Positions 5,867 to 64,000 of a stretch of 64,000 nt of DNA are shown piece after piece (positions within the stretch are counted from its first letter, which is position 1; each line of letters opens with the position of its first letter). The notes beneath the pieces are model-generated. The model did not search any database and was not told the origin of the DNA. It saw only the letters and a program-made list of their open reading frames with translations. The position numbers were made by a program, and so were the translations under genes. Source of the stretch: Candidatus Moraniibacteriota bacterium (GTDB taxonomy: Bacteria > Patescibacteriota > Minisyncoccia > Moranbacterales > UBA2206). Location: NCBI GenBank assembly GCA_003483065.1, contig DMWY01000008.1:2177-66176 (forward strand). The letters run 5' to 3'.

Positions 5867-6256
5867 ATGAATAAAAAAAATCCAGTCGTATTAGTAGTTG
5901 AAGATGAAAAACCACTTCAGGAGGCGATAAAAATTAAATTGGAGTTAAATGGCTTCGATACTGTGACAGCTAGATCAGTAGAACAAGCAATTAATTTTTT
6001 GAGAGACATTAAAAATGTGGATGCTATTTGGTTGGATCACTATCTTTTAGGTAAAGAAAATGGGCTGGATTTTGTGGCTAAGTTAAAGGAGAAAAAAGAG
6101 TGGAAAAAAATTCCGATTTTTATAGTTTCTAATACTGCTAGTCAAGAAAAGGTAAAATCCTATATGAGCCTCGGAGTAGAAAAATATTATGTGAAAGCCA
6201 ATTATAGGTTGGATGATATTATAAAAGACATAAAGAGTAGTTTAAAATTAAAATAA
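5867..6256 (+). CDS. Single-domain response regulator (CheY-like receiver)
   Basis: Receiver motifs VVLVVEDE, WLDHYL (phospho-accepting Asp), IFIVS and K near the C-terminus. No output domain. Confidence 0.8.
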   Translation: MNKKNPVVLVVEDEKPLQEAIKIKLELNGFDTVTARSVEQAINFLRDIKNVDAIWLDHYLLGKENGLDFVAKLKEKKEWKKIPIFIVSNTASQEKVKSYMSLGVEKYYVKANYRLDDIIKDIKSSLKLK

Positions 6257-8548: not shown

Positions 8549-8689
8549 GACTTCCGCATTTCCCTTCGAATCTATTGTTCGCTGAAATTACTTTAAAATT
8601 CAATTAAGATTATAGATAGAAATTATTGTTTATAAATCCTGCCATTGCACTGGCTACATAAATAGATTCTCAGAAAAATGCGTAAGTCC
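8549..8689 (+). repeat. MITE-like intergenic element copy 1 (141 bp) immediately upstream of rpoD
   Basis: Termini GACTTCCGCATTT ... AAATGCGTAAGTCC are inverted repeats. Internal 9-bp inverted repeat GAATCTATT/AATAGATTC. About 88% identical to the copy at 33650-33790. Confidence 0.6.
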
Positions 8690-8708
8690 TAATTATATCT
8701 AAACATTT

Positions 8709-33649: not shown

Positions 33650-33790
33650 GAACTTCCCCATTTCCCTTCGAATCTATTGTTCACTGAAATTACAAAAAAA
33701 TAAAACTAAGATTATAGATAGAAAATATTGATTGTAATCCTGCTATTGTCCTGGCTACATAAATAGATTCTCATTGAAATGCGTAAGTTC
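33650..33790 (+). repeat. MITE-like element copy 3 (141 bp) immediately upstream of the response regulator at 33812
   Basis: GAACTTCCCCATTT ... AAATGCGTAAGTTC. Collinear with and near-identical to copy 1. Confidence 0.6.
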
Positions 33791-33811
33791 TAATAATTAA
33801 TTTTTTAAAAT

Positions 33812-39388: not shown

Positions 39389-40966
39389 ATGGAAATAAAA
39401 AATAAAAAACTAAAAGCTTCGGCTTTGGCTTATGCGCTTATAATCATGGCAATCGTGATGATTATTTTGACTTCAATGCTTGGCTACATCACTAGTCAAA
39501 TTAAGTTTAGTGCTAACAGGGCCCAAAAAGAAGAAGCTTTTCAAATCGCTGAAGCGGGAATATATTTTTATCGTTGGTACCTTGCTCATCAAACAGCTGG
39601 AAAAACTGCACGGGAAGTGGATGATTTTTGGCAGGGTAGTAGTCCCTTGGGTGTTGATTCCCCCTATCAAAAAACTTTTAGTGATCCCGAAGGTGGAGTG
39701 ATTGGATCATATTCCATTGAAGCGGAGCGCCCAATGTCTGGTTCAACTATTGTAGTGGTTAAATCAACTGGATGGACAAATAAGGAGCCAAATCTTAAAA
39801 GAACAGTGCGAGTGAGATTCCGTCGTCCCTCTTGGAGTGAGTACGCAGTATTAGCTAATGATTTTATGCGTTTTGGTCAAGGCACGGAAGTTTTTGGTAA
39901 GATTCATTCTAATAAAGGAATTCGTTTTGACGGACTGGCTCATAATATCGTTTCAAGTCTGATGACGACATTTGATGACCCCGATCATAGTGGGGGCAAT
40001 GAATTTGGAGTACATACTCATGTGAATACTCCACCAACTACAGGAGTGAATAATAATTATCGACCACTTGAAGCACCTCCCAATCCAGTTCAAACTCGAA
40101 GTGATGTTTTTGCAATTGGTCGGGAATTTCCAGTGTCAGAAGTTAGTTTCGCTGGAGTTTCTTCAGACTTAGCTTTTATGAGAACTCAAGCACAAAGTGG
40201 CAGTGGGAGATATTTTAACAATTCTGGTTGTGGGAGAACAATAAGCTTAACTAATGGAACATTCAATATTTGCACGGTGAATTCTTATAACTCTGATTCT
40301 TATTCTATATCTGATTATCAAGGGATAGTTACTGGAGCGACAGGAGGTTATAGTGGAAGTAATGGTACAAGTTGCACAACCTCCGCCTGTTGTTTATATA
40401 GTGATTGTGGATGGATTAGTTCAAGTCGTCATAGTAGGGGTAAGTGTGTGAGTATGGCTAATTATGATATTCCTAATAATGGGATTATTTTTGTGGATGA
40501 TAATGCTTGGGTGGAGGGAACAATTAATGATAAAAAAGTTACCATAGTAGCAACGTATAATTCAGTTATTGGGGATAATTCTTGCAGTACTAATACTTCT
40601 CGTGATATCTATATCGGTATGAATAATTTACTTTATACTAATTTTGATGGTCGAGATGTGATTGGGCTTATTGCTCAAAATAATATTAGTGTAGTTGCCA
40701 ATAGCTTAAATAACCTAACAATTGACGGTGCACTTTTAGCCCAATCAGGTAGGGTGGGAAGAAATCACTACAGTTCTTCTTATGACAAAAGCACCATTAC
40801 AGTCAATGGTTCAATGGCCACTAATATTCGTTATGGCTTTGCTTATACTGATGGAACAGGTTATGATAATCGAATTTTAAATTTTGATAATAATTTGCTC
40901 TATTATCCACCACCATATTTTCCCACAGGTTCGCAATACTCAATTGATTTATGGGAAGAAATATAA
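39389..40966 (+). CDS. Pilus-associated protein with PilX-like hydrophobic N-terminus and Cys-rich C-terminal domain
   Basis: N-terminus KLKASALAYALIIMAIVMIILTSMLGYI (PilX_N-like). C-terminal region rich in Cys/Ser/Gly/Asn. Sits between pilin genes and pilM. Confidence 0.4.
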   Translation: MEIKNKKLKASALAYALIIMAIVMIILTSMLGYITSQIKFSANRAQKEEAFQIAEAGIYFYRWYLAHQTAGKTAREVDDFWQGSSPLGVDSPYQKTFSDPEGGVIGSYSIEAERPMSGSTIVVVKSTGWTNKEPNLKRTVRVRFRRPSWSEYAVLANDFMRFGQGTEVFGKIHSNKGIRFDGLAHNIVSSLMTTFDDPDHSGGNEFGVHTHVNTPPTTGVNNNYRPLEAPPNPVQTRSDVFAIGREFPVSEVSFAGVSSDLAFMRTQAQSGSGRYFNNSGCGRTISLTNGTFNICTVNSYNSDSYSISDYQGIVTGATGGYSGSNGTSCTTSACCLYSDCGWISSSRHSRGKCVSMANYDIPNNGIIFVDDNAWVEGTINDKKVTIVATYNSVIGDNSCSTNTSRDIYIGMNNLLYTNFDGRDVIGLIAQNNISVVANSLNNLTIDGALLAQSGRVGRNHYSSSYDKSTITVNGSMATNIRYGFAYTDGTGYDNRILNFDNNLLYYPPPYFPTGSQYSIDLWEEI

Positions 40967-40999
40967 TAGAATAGAAGATGTAAAACAAAACAAAAAATT

Positions 41000-42076
41000 A
41001 TGGCTTTTTGGAATAAGGAAATAATTAGCTTGAATGAAAAATATTTTAGCTTAGACATCAGTGATCTTTCAGTGAAAGTTTTTCAATTAGAAAAAAAAGG
41101 AGGAAAAGATGAGATTAGAAGTTTTGGAGTGAGTGAAATTCCACTGGGATGTATTGAAAACGGAGAGATAATTAATCGCGAAAAAGTCGTTGAAGTAATC
41201 AAAAAGCTTTTGACCACAGCTGGTCCCAAAAAAATCAACACTAAGAAAGTGATTTGTTCTTTGCCAGAATCGAAAGTATTTTTGCGGGCTGTCACTATTC
41301 CTGAGATGAGCAAGGATGAGGCAGCTGAAGCGATAAAATGGGAAATTGAAGCTAGTACTCCGCTAGCGTTGGAACAGGTTTATTACGACTGGCAATTTTT
41401 GGATAAATTTGAAGGAAAGCAGAATGTTTTAACGGCAGCTGTAGGCAAGGATTTCGTGGATAAGCTTTCAGAAATTCTGACAGATTGTGGCTTGGAAGTT
41501 TGTGGTATGGAAGTAGAATCAGTAGCATCGACTCGAAGTTTGATTGCCAAGGATGCCAAGGCAGAAAATATTTTTCTAATTGTAGATATTGGTTCAAGCA
41601 AAACTAGTTTCACTGTCACCGAAGGAAACATTCCATATTTTACTTCTAGCATTCCTTTTTCTTCTTCTGGCATCACAGAAGAAATTTCCAGTAGGATGAA
41701 TTTCCAAAAAGAGGAAGCGGAAAAAATAAAAATTACCCAAGGGATAGAAAATTCTGCTGGGAACAATTCTGTTTTGAATTCGATTGGTTCTCTTTTGGAA
41801 AATCTGGCGGTAGAAATTGAGAGGACAATGGATTTCTATCAGAATATGTCCAAAAGTCATCCGGAAATAGAAAAAATTATTTTGACTGGCGGTGGCTCCA
41901 ATCTCAAAGGTCTTTTGACTTATTTGAAAACAAAAATTTCCACCGAAATAGTTTTGGGAGATCCTTGGATAAATTTAAATTTAGCTAATAAATTGCCCAA
42001 GATAAGCCAAGAGGATGCAATGCGCTATGTTGTGTCTATTGGATTAGCTATGCGAGAAACTGATTATGGAGATTAA
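41000..42076 (+). CDS. pilM: Type IV pilus assembly protein PilM (actin-like ATPase fold)
   Basis: Length and pattern typical of PilM (FSLDISDLSVKVFQL..., IVDIGSSKTSF, ILTGGGSNLKGL). Confidence 0.8.
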   Translation: MAFWNKEIISLNEKYFSLDISDLSVKVFQLEKKGGKDEIRSFGVSEIPLGCIENGEIINREKVVEVIKKLLTTAGPKKINTKKVICSLPESKVFLRAVTIPEMSKDEAAEAIKWEIEASTPLALEQVYYDWQFLDKFEGKQNVLTAAVGKDFVDKLSEILTDCGLEVCGMEVESVASTRSLIAKDAKAENIFLIVDIGSSKTSFTVTEGNIPYFTSSIPFSSSGITEEISSRMNFQKEEAEKIKITQGIENSAGNNSVLNSIGSLLENLAVEIERTMDFYQNMSKSHPEIEKIILTGGGSNLKGLLTYLKTKISTEIVLGDPWINLNLANKLPKISQEDAMRYVVSIGLAMRETDYGD

Positions 42077-50588: not shown

Positions 50589-50742
50589 AAATAGTTGATT
50601 TATTTTTAAATATATGATAATATCTTTCTATCATTGAAAGGTGCCCTGCTAAGGCATTTTTTATTGAACTATATGCCGCGTTCGTCCCCGCCTCGCGTCG
50701 ACGAGCGGTCGCCTCCGCGAGTCGAGGCGGGTAGCCCAATTT

Positions 50743-51003
50743 ATGAATAACTATTTTATATATTTATTAATAAGTCAGGATAAGCAGAGAACGTATACGG
50801 GATTTACTGATAATATAGAAAATAGGATAAAAAAACATAAAACCAAAGGCGTTAGAACAACAAAAAATTTCGGTGATTTCGGTTATATAATATTAGAAAA
50901 AGTTTTGCCTGACGAAAGACTTGCAAGAGAAGCTGAAAAATATTGGAAGTCTGCCTCTGGTAGGAGAAGGATAAAAGAAATATTAAAAAATAAAGAAGAT
51001 TAA
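50743..51003 (+). CDS. GIY-YIG nuclease family small protein
   Basis: YIYLLISQDKQRTYTGFTDNIENRIKKH matches the GIY...YIG core with a conserved Arg and a C-terminal Glu (EAEKYWK). Confidence 0.8.
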   Translation: MNNYFIYLLISQDKQRTYTGFTDNIENRIKKHKTKGVRTTKNFGDFGYIILEKVLPDERLAREAEKYWKSASGRRRIKEILKNKED

Positions 51004-51007
51004 TTAT

Positions 51008-51085
51008 GCCGCGTTCGTCTAGCCCGGTCAGGACGCCAGGTTTTCATCCTGGAAATCATGGGTTCGAATCCCATACGCGGTACCA
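51008..51085 (+). tRNA. tRNA-Glu (anticodon TTC)
   Basis: GCCGCGTTCGTCTAGCCCGGTCAGGACGCCAGGTTTTCATCCTGGAAATCATGGGTTCGAATCCCATACGCGGTACCA. Cloverleaf with anticodon loop TTTTCAT. CCA encoded. Terminator hairpin at 51092-51117. Confidence 0.8.
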
Positions 51086-51114
51086 AACTTGAAAACAGCC
51101 CTTGATGGCTGTTT

Positions 51115-51143
51115 TTGATTTATCGGAGGAAGGGGGGTAGAAT
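51115..51143 (+). promoter_or_regulatory. Conserved island promoter module, copy 1 (TTGATT, 17 nt, TAGAAT)
   Basis: TTGATT tatcggaggaagggggg TAGAAT GGAAGTGTTCAGT. The G-rich spacer and the first transcribed nucleotides are conserved in copies at 53095 and 53498. A second promoter (TTGCCT, 17 nt, TATAAT at 51195-51223) follows in the same leader. Confidence 0.6.
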
Positions 51144-51249
51144 GGAAGTGTTCAGTGAGGATTGGAAAAAATAAAGTTATCCACAGCTCAAAAGTTGCCT
51201 AAAATATCACAGAGTGATATAATATCATCATAACAAACTAAATAAAGTT

Positions 51250-51582
51250 ATGAAAAACAAATATAGTTCACTCGTCATTTTTGAAGATTTTAGGATTCGT
51301 CGTCACTACGACGAAAAAACGGAAACCTGGTATTTCTCGGTAATTGATATTGTTGCCGCTTTGATAGAGCAAACAGAATATAATAAGGCAAAAACATATT
51401 GGACTACTCTCAAGAATCGTTTGAAAAACGAAAAAAGTGAAGTGGTCACAAAATGTGACCAGTTGAAAATGCTGGCTAAAGATGGAAAAATGAGAGATCG
51501 GGATAATGAAATGTCTCAATCGTTTCCATTTTGGGAACAGTTGAATTTGTCAGCAAAAGAAAAAAGATATCAAAAAATTTAA
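51250..51582 (+). CDS. Bro-N domain protein (phage antirepressor-like N-terminal domain)
   Basis: VIFEDFRIRRHYDEKTETWYFSVIDIVAAL follows the Bro-N pattern (F-x-F...iR...g..wF.a.Dva..L). Confidence 0.55.
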   Translation: MKNKYSSLVIFEDFRIRRHYDEKTETWYFSVIDIVAALIEQTEYNKAKTYWTTLKNRLKNEKSEVVTKCDQLKMLAKDGKMRDRDNEMSQSFPFWEQLNLSAKEKRYQKI

Positions 51583-51590
51583 ATTAAATT

Positions 51591-52412
51591 ATGAAAAAAA
51601 TAAACACACAAGGGCTACAAATATATACTTTTCAAAAGAATGAGGGTGACTATATCTCGCTTACTGATATGGCTAAATATAAAGATCCTGAAAGGACAGA
51701 CTATATCATTCAAAACTGGATGAGAAATTATTCTACGATAGAATTTTTAGGTATTTGGGAGAGAATAAATAACCCTAATTTTAACCCCATCGAATTCGAC
51801 GGGTTTAAAAATAAAGCAGGTTCTAATAGTTTTTCGTTGACACCGACCAGATGGATCAGCGCTGTAAATGCAATTGGAATGATAACAAAATCAGGACGCT
51901 ATGGCGGAGGCACTTTTGCCCATAAAGATATTGCTTTTGAATTCGCAACTTGGATATCAGCCGAGTTTAAACTATATTTAATCAAGGAATTCCAAAGATT
52001 AAAAATAGAGGAAACCGAAAGACTAACTCTTGGTTGGGATGCAAAAAGAGCTTTGACCAAAATCAATTATCGCATACACACCGATTCTATCAAGGAAAAC
52101 ATCGTATTGCCACAGCAACTTTCAAAAAAAGATGCAGACATCACCTATGCCAATGAAGCGGATATTTTAAACAAGGCATTGTTTGGGATGACTGCATTGG
52201 AATGGAGAATAAAAAATAAAGGTAAAGAAGGAAACATTCGAGATTACTCCGATGTATATCAACTTATTTGTCTGGCTAATCTTGAAACATTAAATTCGGA
52301 ATTTATAAAAATGGGAATGAGTCAGAAAGAGAGACTGCTCAAATTAAATGAAATAGCTATTGTTCAAATGAGGTCACTTTTGAACAATCCAACTGTGAAA
52401 AAATTGAATTAA
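51591..52412 (+). CDS. KilA-N domain protein
   Basis: N-terminal YISLTDMAKYKDPERTDYIIQNWMRNYSTIEFLGIWE resembles the KilA-N DNA-binding domain; about 150-aa C-terminal domain unknown. Confidence 0.55.
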   Translation: MKKINTQGLQIYTFQKNEGDYISLTDMAKYKDPERTDYIIQNWMRNYSTIEFLGIWERINNPNFNPIEFDGFKNKAGSNSFSLTPTRWISAVNAIGMITKSGRYGGGTFAHKDIAFEFATWISAEFKLYLIKEFQRLKIEETERLTLGWDAKRALTKINYRIHTDSIKENIVLPQQLSKKDADITYANEADILNKALFGMTALEWRIKNKGKEGNIRDYSDVYQLICLANLETLNSEFIKMGMSQKERLLKLNEIAIVQMRSLLNNPTVKKLN

Positions 52413-52416
52413 ATTT

Positions 52417-52926
52417 ATGGAAAAAGAAAATAATCTTGCCTTTATTGATGGACAAAATCTTTATATGGGAACAAGAAAAATAAAAGAACGACCATGGAAA
52501 GTTAATTTGAAGAAATTTAGAATTTTTTTGAAGGATAAATATCATATTCAGACAGCCTACTATTTTCTTGGATTTGTGAATGAGAAGAATCAAGATCTCT
52601 ATACTGAGATACAAGAAGCGGGATTTGTTTTGATTTTTAGAGAACATAATGCTGCTATGATTGGAAAGAAAAAGGGGAACGTAGATTCTGATATTGTTTT
52701 TTCTATTATGAAAAAACTATATAAAAAAGAGGTTTTTGAAAAGGTAGTATTGGTATCTGGCGATGGGGACTATAAGCAATTAGTCGATTTTCTTATCGAG
52801 GAAAAAAGATTTAAAAAAGCTTTATTTCCAAATAGAAAATTCGCTTCGTCATTATATAAAAAACTTGGGTCAGAGTTCTTTGATTTTTTAGATAGTGAGG
52901 CTATAAAAGCGAAGATTATGAAATAA
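52417..52926 (+). CDS. NYN-domain (PIN-like) putative RNase
   Basis: AFIDGQNLY ... DSDIVFSIM ... VVLVSGDGDYKQLVDFL: the three acidic clusters typical of NYN/LabA nucleases. Confidence 0.7.
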   Translation: MEKENNLAFIDGQNLYMGTRKIKERPWKVNLKKFRIFLKDKYHIQTAYYFLGFVNEKNQDLYTEIQEAGFVLIFREHNAAMIGKKKGNVDSDIVFSIMKKLYKKEVFEKVVLVSGDGDYKQLVDFLIEEKRFKKALFPNRKFASSLYKKLGSEFFDFLDSEAIKAKIMK

Positions 52927-53094
52927 AAAAAGGCTCCTTAGGCACCAACACCTTTCGGATCCTTTTCGTCTTTATGCATAAAATATACACCCAAATCAGC
53001 GAAATGTCAACAGTGCTTGAATAAACAATATTTAAACCTATTCATAATACACTTATTTAGACCAAATATTCCACAAAATTTATGAACATATTTG

Positions 53095-53123
53095 TTGGCT
53101 TATTGGGGGAAAGGGGGTAGAAT
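53095..53123 (+). promoter_or_regulatory. Conserved island promoter module, copy 2
   Basis: TTGGCT tattgggggaaaggggg TAGAAT AGAAGTGTTGA. Confidence 0.55.
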
Positions 53124-53200
53124 AGAAGTGTTGAATAATATCGAGAAAACAGAGAGTTTGCACCATTAATTGCGTAGCATAATTAATTTAAAATAAATTT

Positions 53201-53464
53201 ATGGAAAGCATGGAAAATCAAAATAAAATTTGGAAAGGTACGAATTTTTGGAAGGAAGAGATAAAAAAGGCGGGAGTTCTTGACAAGCTTAAATTTTTTA
53301 GCGACGTTATTACTGAAAATAGAGCGCCTCTTAGTTATGGCGATCCGGTTATCACGGATGTTGTGCTTGATGGAGTTGTATGTGATATATATCACACTGA
53401 CAAAAAACCAAATGACACAGGTTGCAGAATATTTATTCACAAAAAAGAGAGTACTGAAAATTAG
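53201..53464 (+). CDS. Hypothetical small protein
   Basis: 87 aa, own promoter and terminator (53475-53497). Confidence 0.35.
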   Translation: MESMENQNKIWKGTNFWKEEIKKAGVLDKLKFFSDVITENRAPLSYGDPVITDVVLDGVVCDIYHTDKKPNDTGCRIFIHKKESTEN

Positions 53465-53497
53465 AAAAATTCACAAAACCGCTATCACTGGCGGTTT

Positions 53498-53526
53498 TTG
53501 ATTTATTGGAGGAAAGGGGGTAGAAT
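53498..53526 (+). promoter_or_regulatory. Conserved island promoter module, copy 3
   Basis: TTGATT tattggaggaaaggggg TAGAAT GGAAGTGTTCAGT. The -35 is fused to the T-run of the upstream terminator, as in copy 1. Confidence 0.6.
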
Positions 53527-53564
53527 GGAAGTGTTCAGTAATTAGTTAAGTAACATACAAAAAT

Positions 53565-54083
53565 ATGAAAATTGGAATTATTTCTGACGTCCATGACAAT
53601 GGACTAAATCTTCTAAAAGCGATAGATATTTTCAAGAAAAAAGAAGTTGAGATTATAATTCATTGTGGTGATTGGGGTTCGCCTGGAGCAGCTTGGCTTT
53701 TCATGAATAATTGTGACATCAGAACAATTTCGGTTTTTGGTAATAATGACAAGGATATGTATCGTTTTTTTACTTATAAAGAAAAGTATAATTGGGATAA
53801 GTTAGAATATCATGGTGAATTTGCAAATTTAGAATTGGAAGGAAAAAAGATTGCGGTTTATCATGGAAATGTTGGCGAGATAACAGAGGCATTGATGCTT
53901 TCTGGAAAGTGGGAAACAGTAATTTCAGGCCATGATCATGTGTCAAAGATAGAATCTGTAAATGGCGTCTTACATATTAATCCAGGAACAATTAATTGTT
54001 TGAAAGCTGGGAAAATCGAGAATAATTTTACGGTTGCGATTTATGATTTAGGAGAAAATAAGGCAGAGATTATTAAGTTGTAA
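53565..54083 (+). CDS. Small metallophosphoesterase (YfcE/MJ0936-like)
   Basis: MKIGIISDVHDN, GDWGSPG, GNND, VYHGN and GHDHV motifs. Confidence 0.8.
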   Translation: MKIGIISDVHDNGLNLLKAIDIFKKKEVEIIIHCGDWGSPGAAWLFMNNCDIRTISVFGNNDKDMYRFFTYKEKYNWDKLEYHGEFANLELEGKKIAVYHGNVGEITEALMLSGKWETVISGHDHVSKIESVNGVLHINPGTINCLKAGKIENNFTVAIYDLGENKAEIIKL

Positions 54084-54189
54084 AAAAGATAGCGATAGTG
54101 ATTAAAATAAATATAAAAATATGACAACAAGAAAAAGTGAAGAAAAAAATACTTGCCCTGTTAAATAATTTTAAATTTTTTAATAGTCT

Positions 54190-54444
54190 ATGTATTACAC
54201 ATATATTTTAAGGAGTGAAAAGGATAATAAAAATTATGTAGGTTATACTAAAAATTTAAAATTAAGATTTGAGGAGCATCAAAAAGGAAAAGTTGAATCA
54301 ACTAAAGATAGAAGGCCATTGAAATTGATATATTATGAAGCATATCTAAATCAGCAGGATGCGACACATAGAGAAAAATATTTAAAAACATATCATGGTA
54401 AGATGTTTCTAAAAAATCGCCTCAAATCTTATTTAACAGGGTGA
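54190..54444 (+). CDS. GIY-YIG nuclease family small protein (second copy)
   Basis: YYTYILRSEKDNKNYVGYTKNLKLRFEEHQKGK ... the GIY-YIG core with conserved R and E. Confidence 0.8.
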   Translation: MYYTYILRSEKDNKNYVGYTKNLKLRFEEHQKGKVESTKDRRPLKLIYYEAYLNQQDATHREKYLKTYHGKMFLKNRLKSYLTG

Positions 54445-54590
54445 ATAAAATCACGAGAGTAGGAAAAACCAGCTTAGCTGTCACTATTCCAATTGAGATG
54501 TATAAAGAATTAGGCTGGAAAGAAAAACAGAAGGTGGTTGTGAAAAGAGTTAGGGGTGGGGTTGAGATTAAGGATTGGAAAAAGATATAA
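54441..54590 (+). CDS. AbrB/MazE/SpoVT-like small DNA-binding protein (49 aa, GTG start overlapping the upstream stop)
   Basis: VNKITRVGKTSLAVTIPIEMYKELGWKEKQKVVVKRVRGGVEIKDWKKI matches the swapped-hairpin AbrB pattern (vrkiGnSlgvtIP.e....l....g..v). Not in the ORF track because it is under 60 aa. Confidence 0.5.
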   Translation: MNKITRVGKTSLAVTIPIEMYKELGWKEKQKVVVKRVRGGVEIKDWKKI

Positions 54591-55375
54591 GGTTATTTAA
54601 AATGGACTTATCTTTCAATATAAAATTAGCTGACAATTATACTAGCTCATCTCAAAAGATAAGAGTTTTGACTGAGGATTGGGTTGATAGGCAAGTTTAT
54701 TGTCCAAACTGCGGGAAGTTAAGTATCGACAGATATGGAAATAATAAACCAGTTGCAGATTTTTATTGTGAAAATTGTAAGGAAGAATATGAATTGAAAA
54801 GCAAGAAGGATAGTATGGGCAAGAAAATTGTTGATGGCGCGTATAGTAAAATGATTGAAAGGCTGGATAGTGTTAATAATCCGAATTTTTTCTTTTTGAA
54901 TTATAGTTTACAAAGTTACAAGGTAGAAAATTTTGTAGTTATTCCGAAACATTTTTTTGTTCCTGAAATTATTGAAAAAAGAAAACCTCTCTCGGAAGAC
55001 GCAAGACGAGCAGGTTGGGTTGGATGCAATATTTTACTTCAAAATATTCCGCAAAGTGGAAAAATATTTTATGTAAAAGACGGAAATTTTGAAAATAAAG
55101 AAGATGTTTTGAAAAATTGGCAGAGAACACTTTTCTTGAGAGAAGAAAAAGAAATTAGTGCGAAAGGTTGGCTTTTGGATGTTATGAGTTGTATTGAGAG
55201 AATAAAAAAACAAAATTTTTCCCTAGATGAAGTTTATGCTTTTGAAAAAGAATTAAAAATAAAACATCCAGACAATAATTTTATTAAGGATAAGATGCGA
55301 CAAAAATTACAGGTTTTAAGAGATAATAATTACATTGAATTTATTAGTCCTGGTAAGTATAAATTAGTCATTTGA
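54575..55375 (+). CDS. DpnI-like methyl-directed (type IIM) restriction endonuclease
   Basis: Collinear with my recollection of the DpnI family: N-terminal catalytic domain with SSQKIRVLTEDWVDRQVYCPNCG ... PVADFYCENCKEEYELKSKK ... NPNFFFLNY ... RKPLSEDARRAGWVGCNI, and a C-terminal winged-helix-like end LQVLRDNNYIEFISPGKYKL. Needs a database search to confirm. Confidence 0.5.
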   Translation: MEKDIRLFKMDLSFNIKLADNYTSSSQKIRVLTEDWVDRQVYCPNCGKLSIDRYGNNKPVADFYCENCKEEYELKSKKDSMGKKIVDGAYSKMIERLDSVNNPNFFFLNYSLQSYKVENFVVIPKHFFVPEIIEKRKPLSEDARRAGWVGCNILLQNIPQSGKIFYVKDGNFENKEDVLKNWQRTLFLREEKEISAKGWLLDVMSCIERIKKQNFSLDEVYAFEKELKIKHPDNNFIKDKMRQKLQVLRDNNYIEFISPGKYKLVI

Positions 55376-58130: not shown

Positions 58131-58278
58131 ATATAATTTTTGTTCAGTAACCCGCCTCTCATCGGCGGAAAGGCATACTAAGTAACACCAACAGCCTTCA
58201 GGGGCTGTTTTTCTGTGGGGGATTGACGAGTGAAATAGAGATGATATAATATCACCATAACAAATAAATATTAAAAAT

Positions 58279-59068
58279 ATGAACAATAATGTTTTTGAAG
58301 AAATAAAAAGAATTAATGAATATCAAAGTGAATATTGGTCGTCTCGTGATTTGGCTAAAGTGTTGGGTTATTCCAGCTACGATAAATTCCTAAATGTTAT
58401 TAATAAAGCCAAAGAAGCATGTGAAAATAGTGGTCAAGTTATCCACAACCATTTTTCCCATATGGACGAAATGGTTGAAATAGGTTCAGGCGCAAAAAGA
58501 GCAATTGATACAGTATATTTATCTCGTTATGCGTGTTATTTGATTATCCAAAATTCCGATCCATCCAAAGAAGTGGTTGCTTTGGGTCAAACATATTTCG
58601 CGATTCAAACTCGAAGACAAGAAAAATCAGATCAGTTAATAGAGGATAATAAAAGATTACATTTGCGTAGTGAAATAAAAACTCACAACACATCCTTAGC
58701 TGAAGCCGCGGAAAATGCGGGAGTTAGCAATTATGGAAAATTTCAAAATTATGGATATAGGGGATTGTATGGGGGGGCTGGACGCAAATGATATTCACAA
58801 AAAGAAAGGTTTAAAAAAATCTCAAAAAATACTTGATCATATGGGGAGCGAAGAATTGGCAGCTAACTTATTTCGCGCCACTCAAGCTGATGCAAAATTA
58901 CGCAGAGAAAAAATCCAAGGCGAAATTAACGCAAATTTGACGCATTTTCATGTCGGGCAAAAAGTTCGGCGTACAATTGAAGAATTGGGCGGAACAATGC
59001 CTGAAGAACTACCATCAGCAGATGGAATATCTGAGGCGAGGACTAGAATAAAAAAGATTAAAAATTAA
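58279..59068 (+). pseudogene. dinD: DinD-like (DNA-damage-inducible protein D / Bro-N family) gene disrupted by a frameshift at a G7 tract
   Basis: N-terminal frame (58279-58791) FEEIKRINEYQSEYWSSRDLAKVLGY ... GDPSKEVVALGQTYFAIQTR and C-terminal frame (58715-59068) ...GSEELAANLFRATQADAKLRREKIQGE... are two halves of one DinD-like protein. Deleting one G in GGGGGGG (58771-58777) joins them. Confidence 0.65.
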
Positions 59069-59114
59069 AAATTCTAAACCCATCAAATTCGACGGGTTTA
59101 ATAAAAATAATTTT

Positions 59115-63696: not shown

Positions 63697-64000
63697 TCAA
63701 GCTACTAACGCAAATTTCTGATTATTAATTAGTTCGTAAAATTTTTCAGCAGGCGTATAATACCCCAAAGTTTTTCTAGGCCTAGCATTTAGTTTGTTTT
63801 CAACTTCTTTAATTCTTTTAACACTTACTTCTTTGAAATCAGTTCCTTTAGGAAAATATTGACGAATTAATCCGTTAGTATTTTCATTGGTGCCTCTCTG
63901 CCAAGGACTATGCGGATCAGCAAAGAAAACTTTGATTTTAGTTTCTTTGGTAAAAAGTTTATGCTGAGACATTTCACTACCACGATCATAAGTTAAGCTT
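63697..64000 (-). mobile_element. Partial IS30-family transposase gene (C-terminal portion; continues beyond the window edge)
   Basis: ADPHSPWQRGTNENTNGLIRQYFPKGTDF is the IS30 DDE-domain C-terminal signature. The ORF runs off the right end of the window. Confidence 0.7.

Follow-up and report, generated by a model that had tools for sequence, protein, structure and literature searches.

A repeated terminator-promoter module in a variable Moranbacteria island, a candidate portable promoter and recombination joint

Why do three genes of one bacterial accessory island follow nearly the same 42-nt sequence, and what might that sequence do? The question arises in a 64-kb stretch of DNA (here, the window) from a groundwater Moranbacteria genome, contig LBSL01000003.1 of a Rifle groundwater "Candidatus Moranbacteria" assembly, whose gene order is reproduced in at least 10 independent assemblies. 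A first-pass annotation had described a near-identical promoter module used three times. We confirm a 42-nt repeat, designated module A, at 51115, 53095, and 53498, as well as the gene starts given at 51250, 53201, and 53565. On balance, we favor a composite explanation in which an intrinsic terminator and a sigma-70-type promoter travel with gene cassettes and serve as a recombination patch, analogous to the promoter-early stem-loops (PeSLs) of phages.

All three copies lie on the + strand. Like every copy in the relatives, they are aimed at the following open reading frame (ORF), in the window from a distance of 39 to 107 nt. They fall within 2.4 kb of the island, with none in the remaining 61 kb of the window. 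Copy 1 (A1, 51115-51156; TTGATTTATCGGAGGAAGGGGGGTAGAATGGAAGTGTTCAGT) has a -35 hexamer TTGATT (51115-51120), a 17-nt G-rich spacer, and a -10 hexamer TAGAAT (51138-51143) followed by GGAAGTGTTCAGT. Copy 2 (A2, 53095-53136; TTGGCTTATTGGGGGAAAGGGGGTAGAATAGAAGTGTTGAAT) reads TTGGCT, a 17-nt spacer, and TAGAAT (53118-53123), then AGAAGTGTTGAAT, and copy 3 (A3, 53498-53539; TTGATTTATTGGAGGAAAGGGGGTAGAATGGAAGTGTTCAGT) is TTGATT-17-TAGAAT (53521-53526), again followed by GGAAGTGTTCAGT. Pairwise identity is 40/42 for A1 and A3, 36/42 for A2 and A3, and 34/42 for A1 and A2, with 24 to 28 of the 30 nonhexamer positions matching between copies. The consensus proposed earlier is exact for copies 1 and 3 but not for copy 2, which has GGGGG for GGAGG and AGAAGTGTTGAAT for GGAAGTGTTCAGT. 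The core GGAGGAARGGGGGTAGAAT occurs at 51125, 53105, and 53508 with no more than one mismatch, where shuffled sequence predicts 0.02 occurrences; three matches were reached in 0 of 100 shuffles. A repeat finder recovered the same three sites as a single 65-nt family that includes the upstream hairpins.

These hairpins have the form of intrinsic terminators. T1 (51089-51118, + strand) is AAAACAGCC-CTTGAT-GGCTGTTTTT, with a predicted fold of -13.8 kcal/mol (z = -6.2), and its T-run overlaps the A1 -35. T2 (53475-53498, + strand; AAAACCGCTATCACTGGCGGTTTT; -13.7 kcal/mol, z = -5.4) is bidirectional in form and its T-run overlaps the A3 -35. Fusion of the -35 to the T-run of the preceding terminator in two window copies, as reported earlier, therefore holds for A1 and A3; the hairpin is missing before A2 and in a relative, locus L001. 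A further hairpin, T3, has a fold z of -4.7, and in T1, T2, and T3 alike a predicted stable stem-loop adjoins the promoter-like sequence, the U-run overlapping the -35. A T1-like hairpin with the same stem is also found at 58190-58209 (+ strand), followed by a G-run and copy 2 of a second promoter-like segment, module B, considered below.

Copies of module A from the window and its relatives were aligned. The 5' halves are of three kinds, I (TTTTGATTTATTGGGGGAAAGGGGG), II (TTTCTTTACGAAAGGGGGGGATGGGGG), and III (TGTTGGCTTATTGGGGGAAAGGGGG), which are unrelated in sequence, and all three place a -35-like hexamer (TTGATT, TTTACG, or TTGGCT) exactly 17 nt from the -10. The 3' halves likewise are of three kinds: a, ...GTGTTCAGTGAGGATTGG, which leads to module B; b, ...GTGTTGAATAATATCGAG; and c, ...GTGTTMARTAATWAG...CAACATACAAAAATATG. 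Five combinations are present, namely I-a, I-b, I-c, II-b, and III-b. The sole fully invariant block is GAAGTGTT, at about -4 to +4, which is constant in 10/10 aligned near-identical copies while the -35 and -10 vary. The spacer ends in GGGG(G) and contains 14 to 16 purines among its 17 positions in every copy, even where the sequence differs; speculatively, 9/10 spacers fit a two-tetrad G-quadruplex motif. Neither inverted repeats of 5 nt or longer within module A nor terminal inverted repeats or a target-site duplication, in the module or at its edges, were found.

The near-identical copies all conform to TTGATT/TTGGCT/TTTACG-17-TAGAAT, a sigma-70-like arrangement. A looser pattern search added one diverged member, at 6138 in locus L115 (TTTACGAGGAGGCTGGTTTGGGGTAAAATTGAAGGGTG), which is about 71% identical to type II and retains TTTACG-17-TAAAAT, the GGGG before the -10, and the GAAG after it. 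As hexamers and spacing are kept through otherwise unrelated sequence, module A has the marks of a sigma-70-type promoter, and this is the main argument for assigning it that role. Promoter and terminator function is, in our judgment, probable.

Could this simply be how promoters look in the lineage? A general lineage promoter grammar was rejected as an explanation, as the window's promoters of housekeeping appearance (TTGCAT-17-TATAAT type) have no G-rich spacer. One core promoter (TTGATTTATGGGAAGAAATATAATAGAATAGAAG, 40944-40977; about 395-430 in L001), upstream of a pilM/ftsA-like gene at 41000, has TTGATTTAT...TAGAATAGAAG in common with module A (76% over 34 nt). The promoter is conserved in L001, and the upstream region around it is conserved at 88%, as against about 70% identity in the coding DNA of the same genomes. 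Part of the module A frame (TTGATTTAT, TAGAAT, RGAAG) may accordingly be a lineage preference, that is, a lineage-typical extended promoter frame. As a separate observation, four terminators in L115 (4660, 6109, 7979, and 10532) have common A-rich and T-rich flanks (AAAAAGAAGAA...TTTTTTCTTTA) around stems that differ, each internally complementary; two of them lead into type-II module A copies.

How widely is the module distributed? In a scan of one genome per species across 185,579 species, the whole module is found in only four Moranbacteria/Parcubacteria genomes, with one exact match each, and a scan of Joint Genome Institute (JGI) metagenomes places it on five contigs. In the sequence scanned, one to three copies were seen per genome and no more than three per locus, and the islands that contain them are all accessory islands of one kind. 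The known set comprises about 11 distinct copies, upstream of at least six unrelated genes; screening the full 1 Mb of retrieved sequence with a profile added none. Searches of IMG/VR, GenBank phages, and PLSDB plasmids returned no matches to the module, on which ground a phage or plasmid origin was rejected; the two matches to the type-II 5' half are chance matches in coding DNA. Viral contigs often carry homologues of the KilA-N protein of the island, at 50 to 61% identity, but none of 80 such loci has module A.

From pattern length and collection size, we estimate that about four chance matches would arise in the species scan. Matches in Streptococcus, Intestinimonas, and a planctomycete (L002-L004) were treated as chance or as convergent G-run promoters. 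The Streptococcus pluranimalium site (L003, 3871-3910) consists of TTGACA, a 19-nt spacer with a 15-G run, and TAGAATGGAAGTGT. This promoter-like site is unrelated to module A, which it resembles by chance or convergence; poly-G spacers of its type are linked to phase variation. The idea that module A marks many cassette-like genes throughout the genome thus did not survive the search. With its few related carrier genomes and its confinement to the island, module A is a rare, island-specific element and not a general regulatory motif.

Within these islands, the module is not tied to any one gene. T2 plus module A precedes the phosphoesterase gene in the window and in L011, the 87-amino-acid (87-aa) ORF in L006, and a NYN-domain gene in L005. 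BRO-N, a 100-aa ORF, and a metallo-beta-lactamase-fold gene stand behind further copies, whose upstream neighbors include vanW, aldehyde:ferredoxin oxidoreductase, Fic, and PIN-PhoH. Elsewhere in Patescibacteria, two of these downstream genes also occur module-free. A phosphoesterase homologue (P0002, 85% aa identity) lies in a TsaE-phosphoglucomutase (PGM) operon and shares sequence only from 6 nt upstream of its ATG onward, and the 87-aa ORF has module-free homologues at 61 to 78% identity. In relatives, the cassette unit starts at the module's 5' edge and ends a few bases past the stop codon: the phosphoesterase cassette (53495-54087) recurs in L007/L115 in a different neighborhood, and the ORF cassette (53091-53478) recurs in L006 behind a chimeric module. 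The proposal of a portable terminator-promoter junction is well supported by this pattern, and we regard portability of module A as highly probable.

Comparison of related islands also bears on how cassettes might be exchanged. Between genomes whose core genes are 70 to 75% identical, island DNA is 85 to 98% identical; for the window and L001, the figures are 70 to 75% for core DNA and 87 to 95% for island segments. The L001 island lies at a different chromosomal site, and its homology to the window starts exactly at GTTTTTGATTTAT. Among about 20 independent ends of homology between relatives, about nine fall within 10 nt of a module or terminator edge. Chimeric modules are present as well. 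In L006a, T2 is followed by an A3-type 5' half, an A2-type 3' half, and the 87-aa ORF, which is the arrangement expected if a circle were excised between A2 and A3 and then re-inserted; at 3520 in L005, an A2 5' half is joined to a different -10 and leader. The five combinations of three 5' and three 3' halves imply crossovers inside the conserved core. As these occupy several positions rather than a fixed one, and as inverted repeats are lacking, they point to homologous or short-homology recombination rather than to a site-specific recombinase.

In the explanation that we favor, a bidirectional-looking intrinsic hairpin would stop transcription of the preceding gene, and its T-run would pass straight into a sigma-70-type promoter. 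That promoter, with a -35 of TTGATT, TTGGCT, or TTTACG, a strict 17-nt purine- and G-rich spacer, a -10 of TAGAAT, and the start-site block GAAGTGTT, would drive the next gene. The unit belongs not to any particular gene but to the hypervariable accessory, defense-type island of a narrow Moranbacteria clade. Its conserved 28 to 45 nt have repeatedly been a joining place for different upstream and downstream sequences, so that module A could act in two ways, as a promoter that is portable and as a short stretch of homology at which RecA-type or short-homology recombination takes place. Such recombination would insert, delete, and swap single-gene cassettes and could capture core genes into the island.

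Several points weigh against this explanation. Promoter and terminator functions are read from the sequence, and in a generic promoter scan, module A sites rank no higher than many AT-rich chance matches. The sigma-70 model also leaves the invariance of GAAGTGTT and the constant G-rich spacer unexplained. Not all rearrangements end at modules: a 1,029-bp NYN-A2-ORF87 indel relative to the 99%-identical L011 ends in NYN codon 7 and just upstream of T2, and breakpoints that recur at 52436 and 54447-54451 coincide with the ends of genes, which indicates that illegitimate recombination also shapes the island. Breakpoints are in any case expected in intergenic DNA, and promoter-keeping rearrangements may simply be the survivors. 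Conservation of module A between species is inseparable from recent horizontal transfer, and with one to three copies per genome, the module is far from the about 50 PeSLs of a phage. For a causal role of module A in recombination, we see even odds.

The gene at 51250, which A1 had been thought to drive, adds a further difficulty, for an exclusive role of module A. Its leader contains module B copy 1 (B1, 51195-51237, + strand), an extended -10 promoter-like sequence TTGCCT-17-TATAAT with TG that includes the palindromes ATATCAC/GTGATAT and TGATAT/ATATCA. Module B copy 2 (58223-58264, + strand; TTGACG-16-TATAAT with TG) stands before the gene at 58279. The second shared promoter-like segment noted by the first-pass annotation, TGATATAATATCAYCATAACAAA, is indeed present in both leaders, at 51215 and 58242, with zero occurrences expected. 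Module B resembles module A in its behavior: about 10 copies occur in relatives, upstream of BRO-N paralogues, NYN, an AntA-like gene, and others; IMG/VR contains no match. B1 is the apparent proximal promoter of the 51250 gene. In L005, a 29-bp deletion has removed the -10 from the module A that follows tRNA-Glu, whereas module B there is undamaged, so A1 would not be an essential promoter of this gene, and the claim that it drives the gene needs this correction. The stretch from A1 to B1 (51157-51194, + strand; GAGGATTGGAAAAAATAAAGTTATCCACAG...) is a remnant of an AbrB/MazE-like gene, derived from its 3' end; it matches the last codons (...KDWKK, then stop) and downstream sequence of the AbrB/MazE-like mini-gene at 54441-54590 and was aligned with 54560-54600 in the window, L006 2830-2890, and L009 4830-4900. 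Directly upstream of module B is a perfect DnaA-box-like sequence, TTATCCACA, present three times in the window against 0.6 expected, a count equalled by 1 of 100 shuffles.

Might the repeats instead be passive duplicates, that is, a promoter that chanced to adjoin a recently duplicated or transferred cassette, conserved through youth and with no special part in recombination? Module A, at 86 to 98% identity, is not clearly better conserved than the neighboring genes in island DNA that is 85 to 98% identical overall, and several indels have nonmodule ends, as such a history would predict. However, the copies are set in unrelated sequence to both left and right, which simple segmental duplication does not explain, and the five combinations of halves and the chimeras L006a and L005 3520 need joints inside the core. 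The 71%-identical copy, which keeps the hexamers, 17-nt spacing, GGGG, and GAAG, argues for constraint and not youth alone. We therefore think passive duplication rather unlikely. A site for co-regulation, compatible with the composite explanation, is an unlikely account too. Here, the G-rich spacer, GAAGTGTT, or both would be an operator or an alternative sigma determinant by which cassettes are switched together, for example, upon phage attack or stress. It would fit the invariance of GAAGTGTT and the purine content of the spacer, the DNA-binding-domain proteins of the island (KilA-N, BRO-N, AbrB-like), and an ECF-type (extracytoplasmic function) sigma/anti-sigma pair directly upstream of the island in three lineages. 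Yet module A has no inverted or direct repeat of 5 nt or longer as used by dimeric regulators, the L001 island does not adjoin the sigma gene, and GAAGTGTT is found elsewhere in the window in coding DNA only. An ECF sigma promoter was rejected, as the conserved upstream region of the sigma gene has nothing in common with module A and no consistent ECF-like -35 runs across module types. The earlier suggestion of a co-regulatory site in the spacer is neither borne out nor refuted: the spacer is always purine- and G-rich, but type I and type II halves do not keep the same bases at the same spacer positions, and the spacer contains no inverted repeat.

Two further accounts fare worse. That module A is a site-specific recombination site, an att-, attC-, or dif-like sequence on which an integrase or a recombinase of Xer type acts, or one end of a small transposable element that moves the cassettes, is suggested by the adjoining tRNA gene and by the L001 homology at a different chromosomal site, whose left edge is exactly the module start. 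We consider it very improbable, given that no integrase, transposase, or resolvase is encoded among the island ORFs, that crossovers in a module without inverted repeats occur at several positions, and that the 26-nt tRNA-Glu 3' end occurs only once, even allowing three mismatches, with no copy at the far end of the island. The same lack of an integrase and of a tRNA 3'-end direct repeat led us to reject a tRNA-integrating island or prophage. Least credible of all is an RNA or peptide element, be it a structured 5' leader, a small RNA, or a short leader peptide (ATGGAAGTGTTCAGT...), for which copies 1 and 3 offer GGAGG and then an ATG that opens ORFs of 10 and 6 codons. Copy 2 has ATA for ATG and most relatives have GGGGG for GGAGG, the mini-ORF being absent from both, and in copy 1 its end is the relic of another gene. 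Predicted folds of the leaders are no more stable than those of shuffled sequence (z = -1.2, +1.1, and +0.3), and Rfam gives nothing for them, whether at gathering score or at E ≤ 1. Riboswitch, attenuator, structured leader RNA, and conserved leader peptide were all discarded on these grounds.

The composite explanation has to be seen in the setting of the island itself, an 8-kb one-directional block directly 3' of tRNA-Glu(UUC) (51008-51085, + strand; ARAGORN; Rfam, 63 bits), which is the left neighbor of the island in the window, L008, and L005. Its genes, on the + strand, begin with a truncated BRO-N-like gene (51250-51582), of 110 aa compared to 281 aa in L001, L005, and L008, which matches PADLOC candidates PDC-S13 and PDC-S04. 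A KilA-N domain gene follows (51591-52412; PADLOC candidate PDC-S22, E = 2.7e-125), then the NYN-domain gene cassette (52417-52926), whose protein is 100% identical to that of L005, where it is preceded by T2, module A, and a module B-like leader. Next come the 87-aa ORF of unknown function (53201-53464), the YfcE-like metallophosphoesterase (53565-54083), a short GIY-YIG gene, the AbrB/MazE-like mini-gene, a DpnI-type methyl-directed restriction enzyme (mREase_II in PADLOC), a 144-aa ORF, a KAP NTPase, and two small ORFs. The last gene, BRO-N/DinD-like (PF02498; 58279-59068), is split by a frameshift into 58279-58791 and 58715-59068, so that both BRO-N family genes of the island are damaged. 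The island of a relative has type I restriction-modification, Abi (abortive infection), and Fic genes. The island is thus an accessory one with defense-type content.

Other features of the region were observed along the way. A 318-bp insertion (50687-51004; within 50674-51020), absent from L008 and also found in L005/L027, contains a GIY-YIG ORF (50743-51003) and a GC-rich hairpin (about 50689-50735). It is flanked by a 15-bp direct duplication, tatgccgcgttcgtc; because this includes the first 12 nt of tRNA-Glu, the insertion must lie within the 5' portion of the tRNA gene, which it restores. The L016/L026 contig is 99.97% identical to the window up to 54451, after which HIT, flavodoxin, Ham1, and HD replace DpnI...DinD; the junction (54445-54451) directly follows the second GIY-YIG ORF (54190-54444) and reflects either strain variation or chimeric assembly. 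In the KilA-N gene, a palindromic stretch, AACCCCATCGAATTCGACGGGTTTAAAAATAA (51776-51813), aligns at 77% identity across 53 nt with the bidirectional terminator (59055-59107) found at the island's right end, a likeness that may be the relic of another KilA-N copy. Outside the island, an intergenic repeat of about 147 nt (8550-8696 and 33652-33797; 87 to 90% identity, unrelated flanks) has ends that pair mutually and a fold z of -3.3 to -5.8 on either strand. It has no Rfam match and could be a miniature inverted-repeat transposable element (MITE) or a small RNA. Also outside the island, at the window end, is an rve-domain (integrase-core) transposase fragment (63697-63972, - strand).

If module A is both an active promoter and a recombination joint, it would provide a simple, integrase-free route for the turnover of defense and accessory genes in Candidate Phyla Radiation (CPR) bacteria, whose mobile-element biology is almost unknown, and the phage PeSL principle would extend to cellular chromosomes. 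A bolder version, which we hold only tentatively, is a PeSL-like mechanism in these ultra-small bacteria. Module A would be an integrase-free joint that excises, inserts, and swaps single-gene defense cassettes, possibly via small circles, and recruits copies of core genes with a ready-made insulated promoter, and the cassettes would share a regulatory input through the start-site block and the G-rich spacer. In practice, the genetic tools now emerging for Patescibacteria could draw on module A as a candidate promoter/terminator part that is native and insulated. Were it merely a recently copied promoter, it would be ordinary.

How, then, does the island compare to known systems? Like integron cassettes, it is a one-directional array of single-gene cassettes, variable in content between close relatives and rich in defense- and toxin-antitoxin-type genes. 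Unlike integrons, which have IntI, attI, and Pc, it shows no recombinase domain in any ORF; attC-like imperfect inverted repeats (≥5 nt) are lacking, and each cassette begins with its own predicted promoter where integron cassettes are promoterless. An integron was rejected on this basis. In Neisseria, intergenic mosaic elements, Correia elements, and "minimal mobile elements" (MMEs) provide short conserved intergenic repeats with promoter or terminator signals at which accessory genes are swapped by homologous recombination. Correia elements have terminal inverted repeats and target duplications, while MMEs rely on flanking conserved genes. Module A has neither the inverted repeats and duplications, whence a MITE or Correia-like repeat was rejected, nor the dependence on flanking conserved genes. 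With defense and tRNA-adjacent islands, the locus shares its position on the 3' side of a tRNA gene and its content of a DpnI-type enzyme, PDC-S22, PDC-S13, PDC-S04, and a KAP NTPase; it differs in having no integrase or att duplication, and a promoter-terminator module is not a described feature of defense islands. Our literature search found no report of comparable modules in bacterial defense islands or CPR genomes.

The PeSLs of T4-type phages are conserved composite motifs of a sigma-70 promoter and a stem-loop terminator (Arbiol et al. 2010, PMC2839356; Comeau et al. 2014, PMC4122927). They are clustered in hyperplastic regions before ORFans, and recombination between them deletes, inserts, or swaps genes and yields mini-circles (PMC2839356, PMC4122927). 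There are clear differences. PeSLs belong to T4-type phages and are used as early promoters, whereas module A lies in a cellular CPR (Moranbacteria) chromosome beside core genes. The hairpin has five placements in PeSLs and is always upstream of the -35 in module A. The sequences are unrelated, and neither a G-rich spacer nor an invariant start-site block is described for PeSLs. The likeness, drawn from sequence comparison, is one of organization: both combine a stem-loop terminator with a sigma-70-like promoter in a repeated, highly conserved motif, and both, here on the one to three copies seen per genome, lie in a hyperplastic region upstream of small nonessential or orphan genes. When close relatives are compared, the ends of indels and replacements fall at or near the motifs in either system, as do about nine of the about 20 ends here, and chimeras such as L006a and L005 3520 are the predicted products of recombination between neighboring copies. 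Judged by architecture, location, and breakpoint pattern, the closest described system to module A appears to be the PeSL of T4-type phages.

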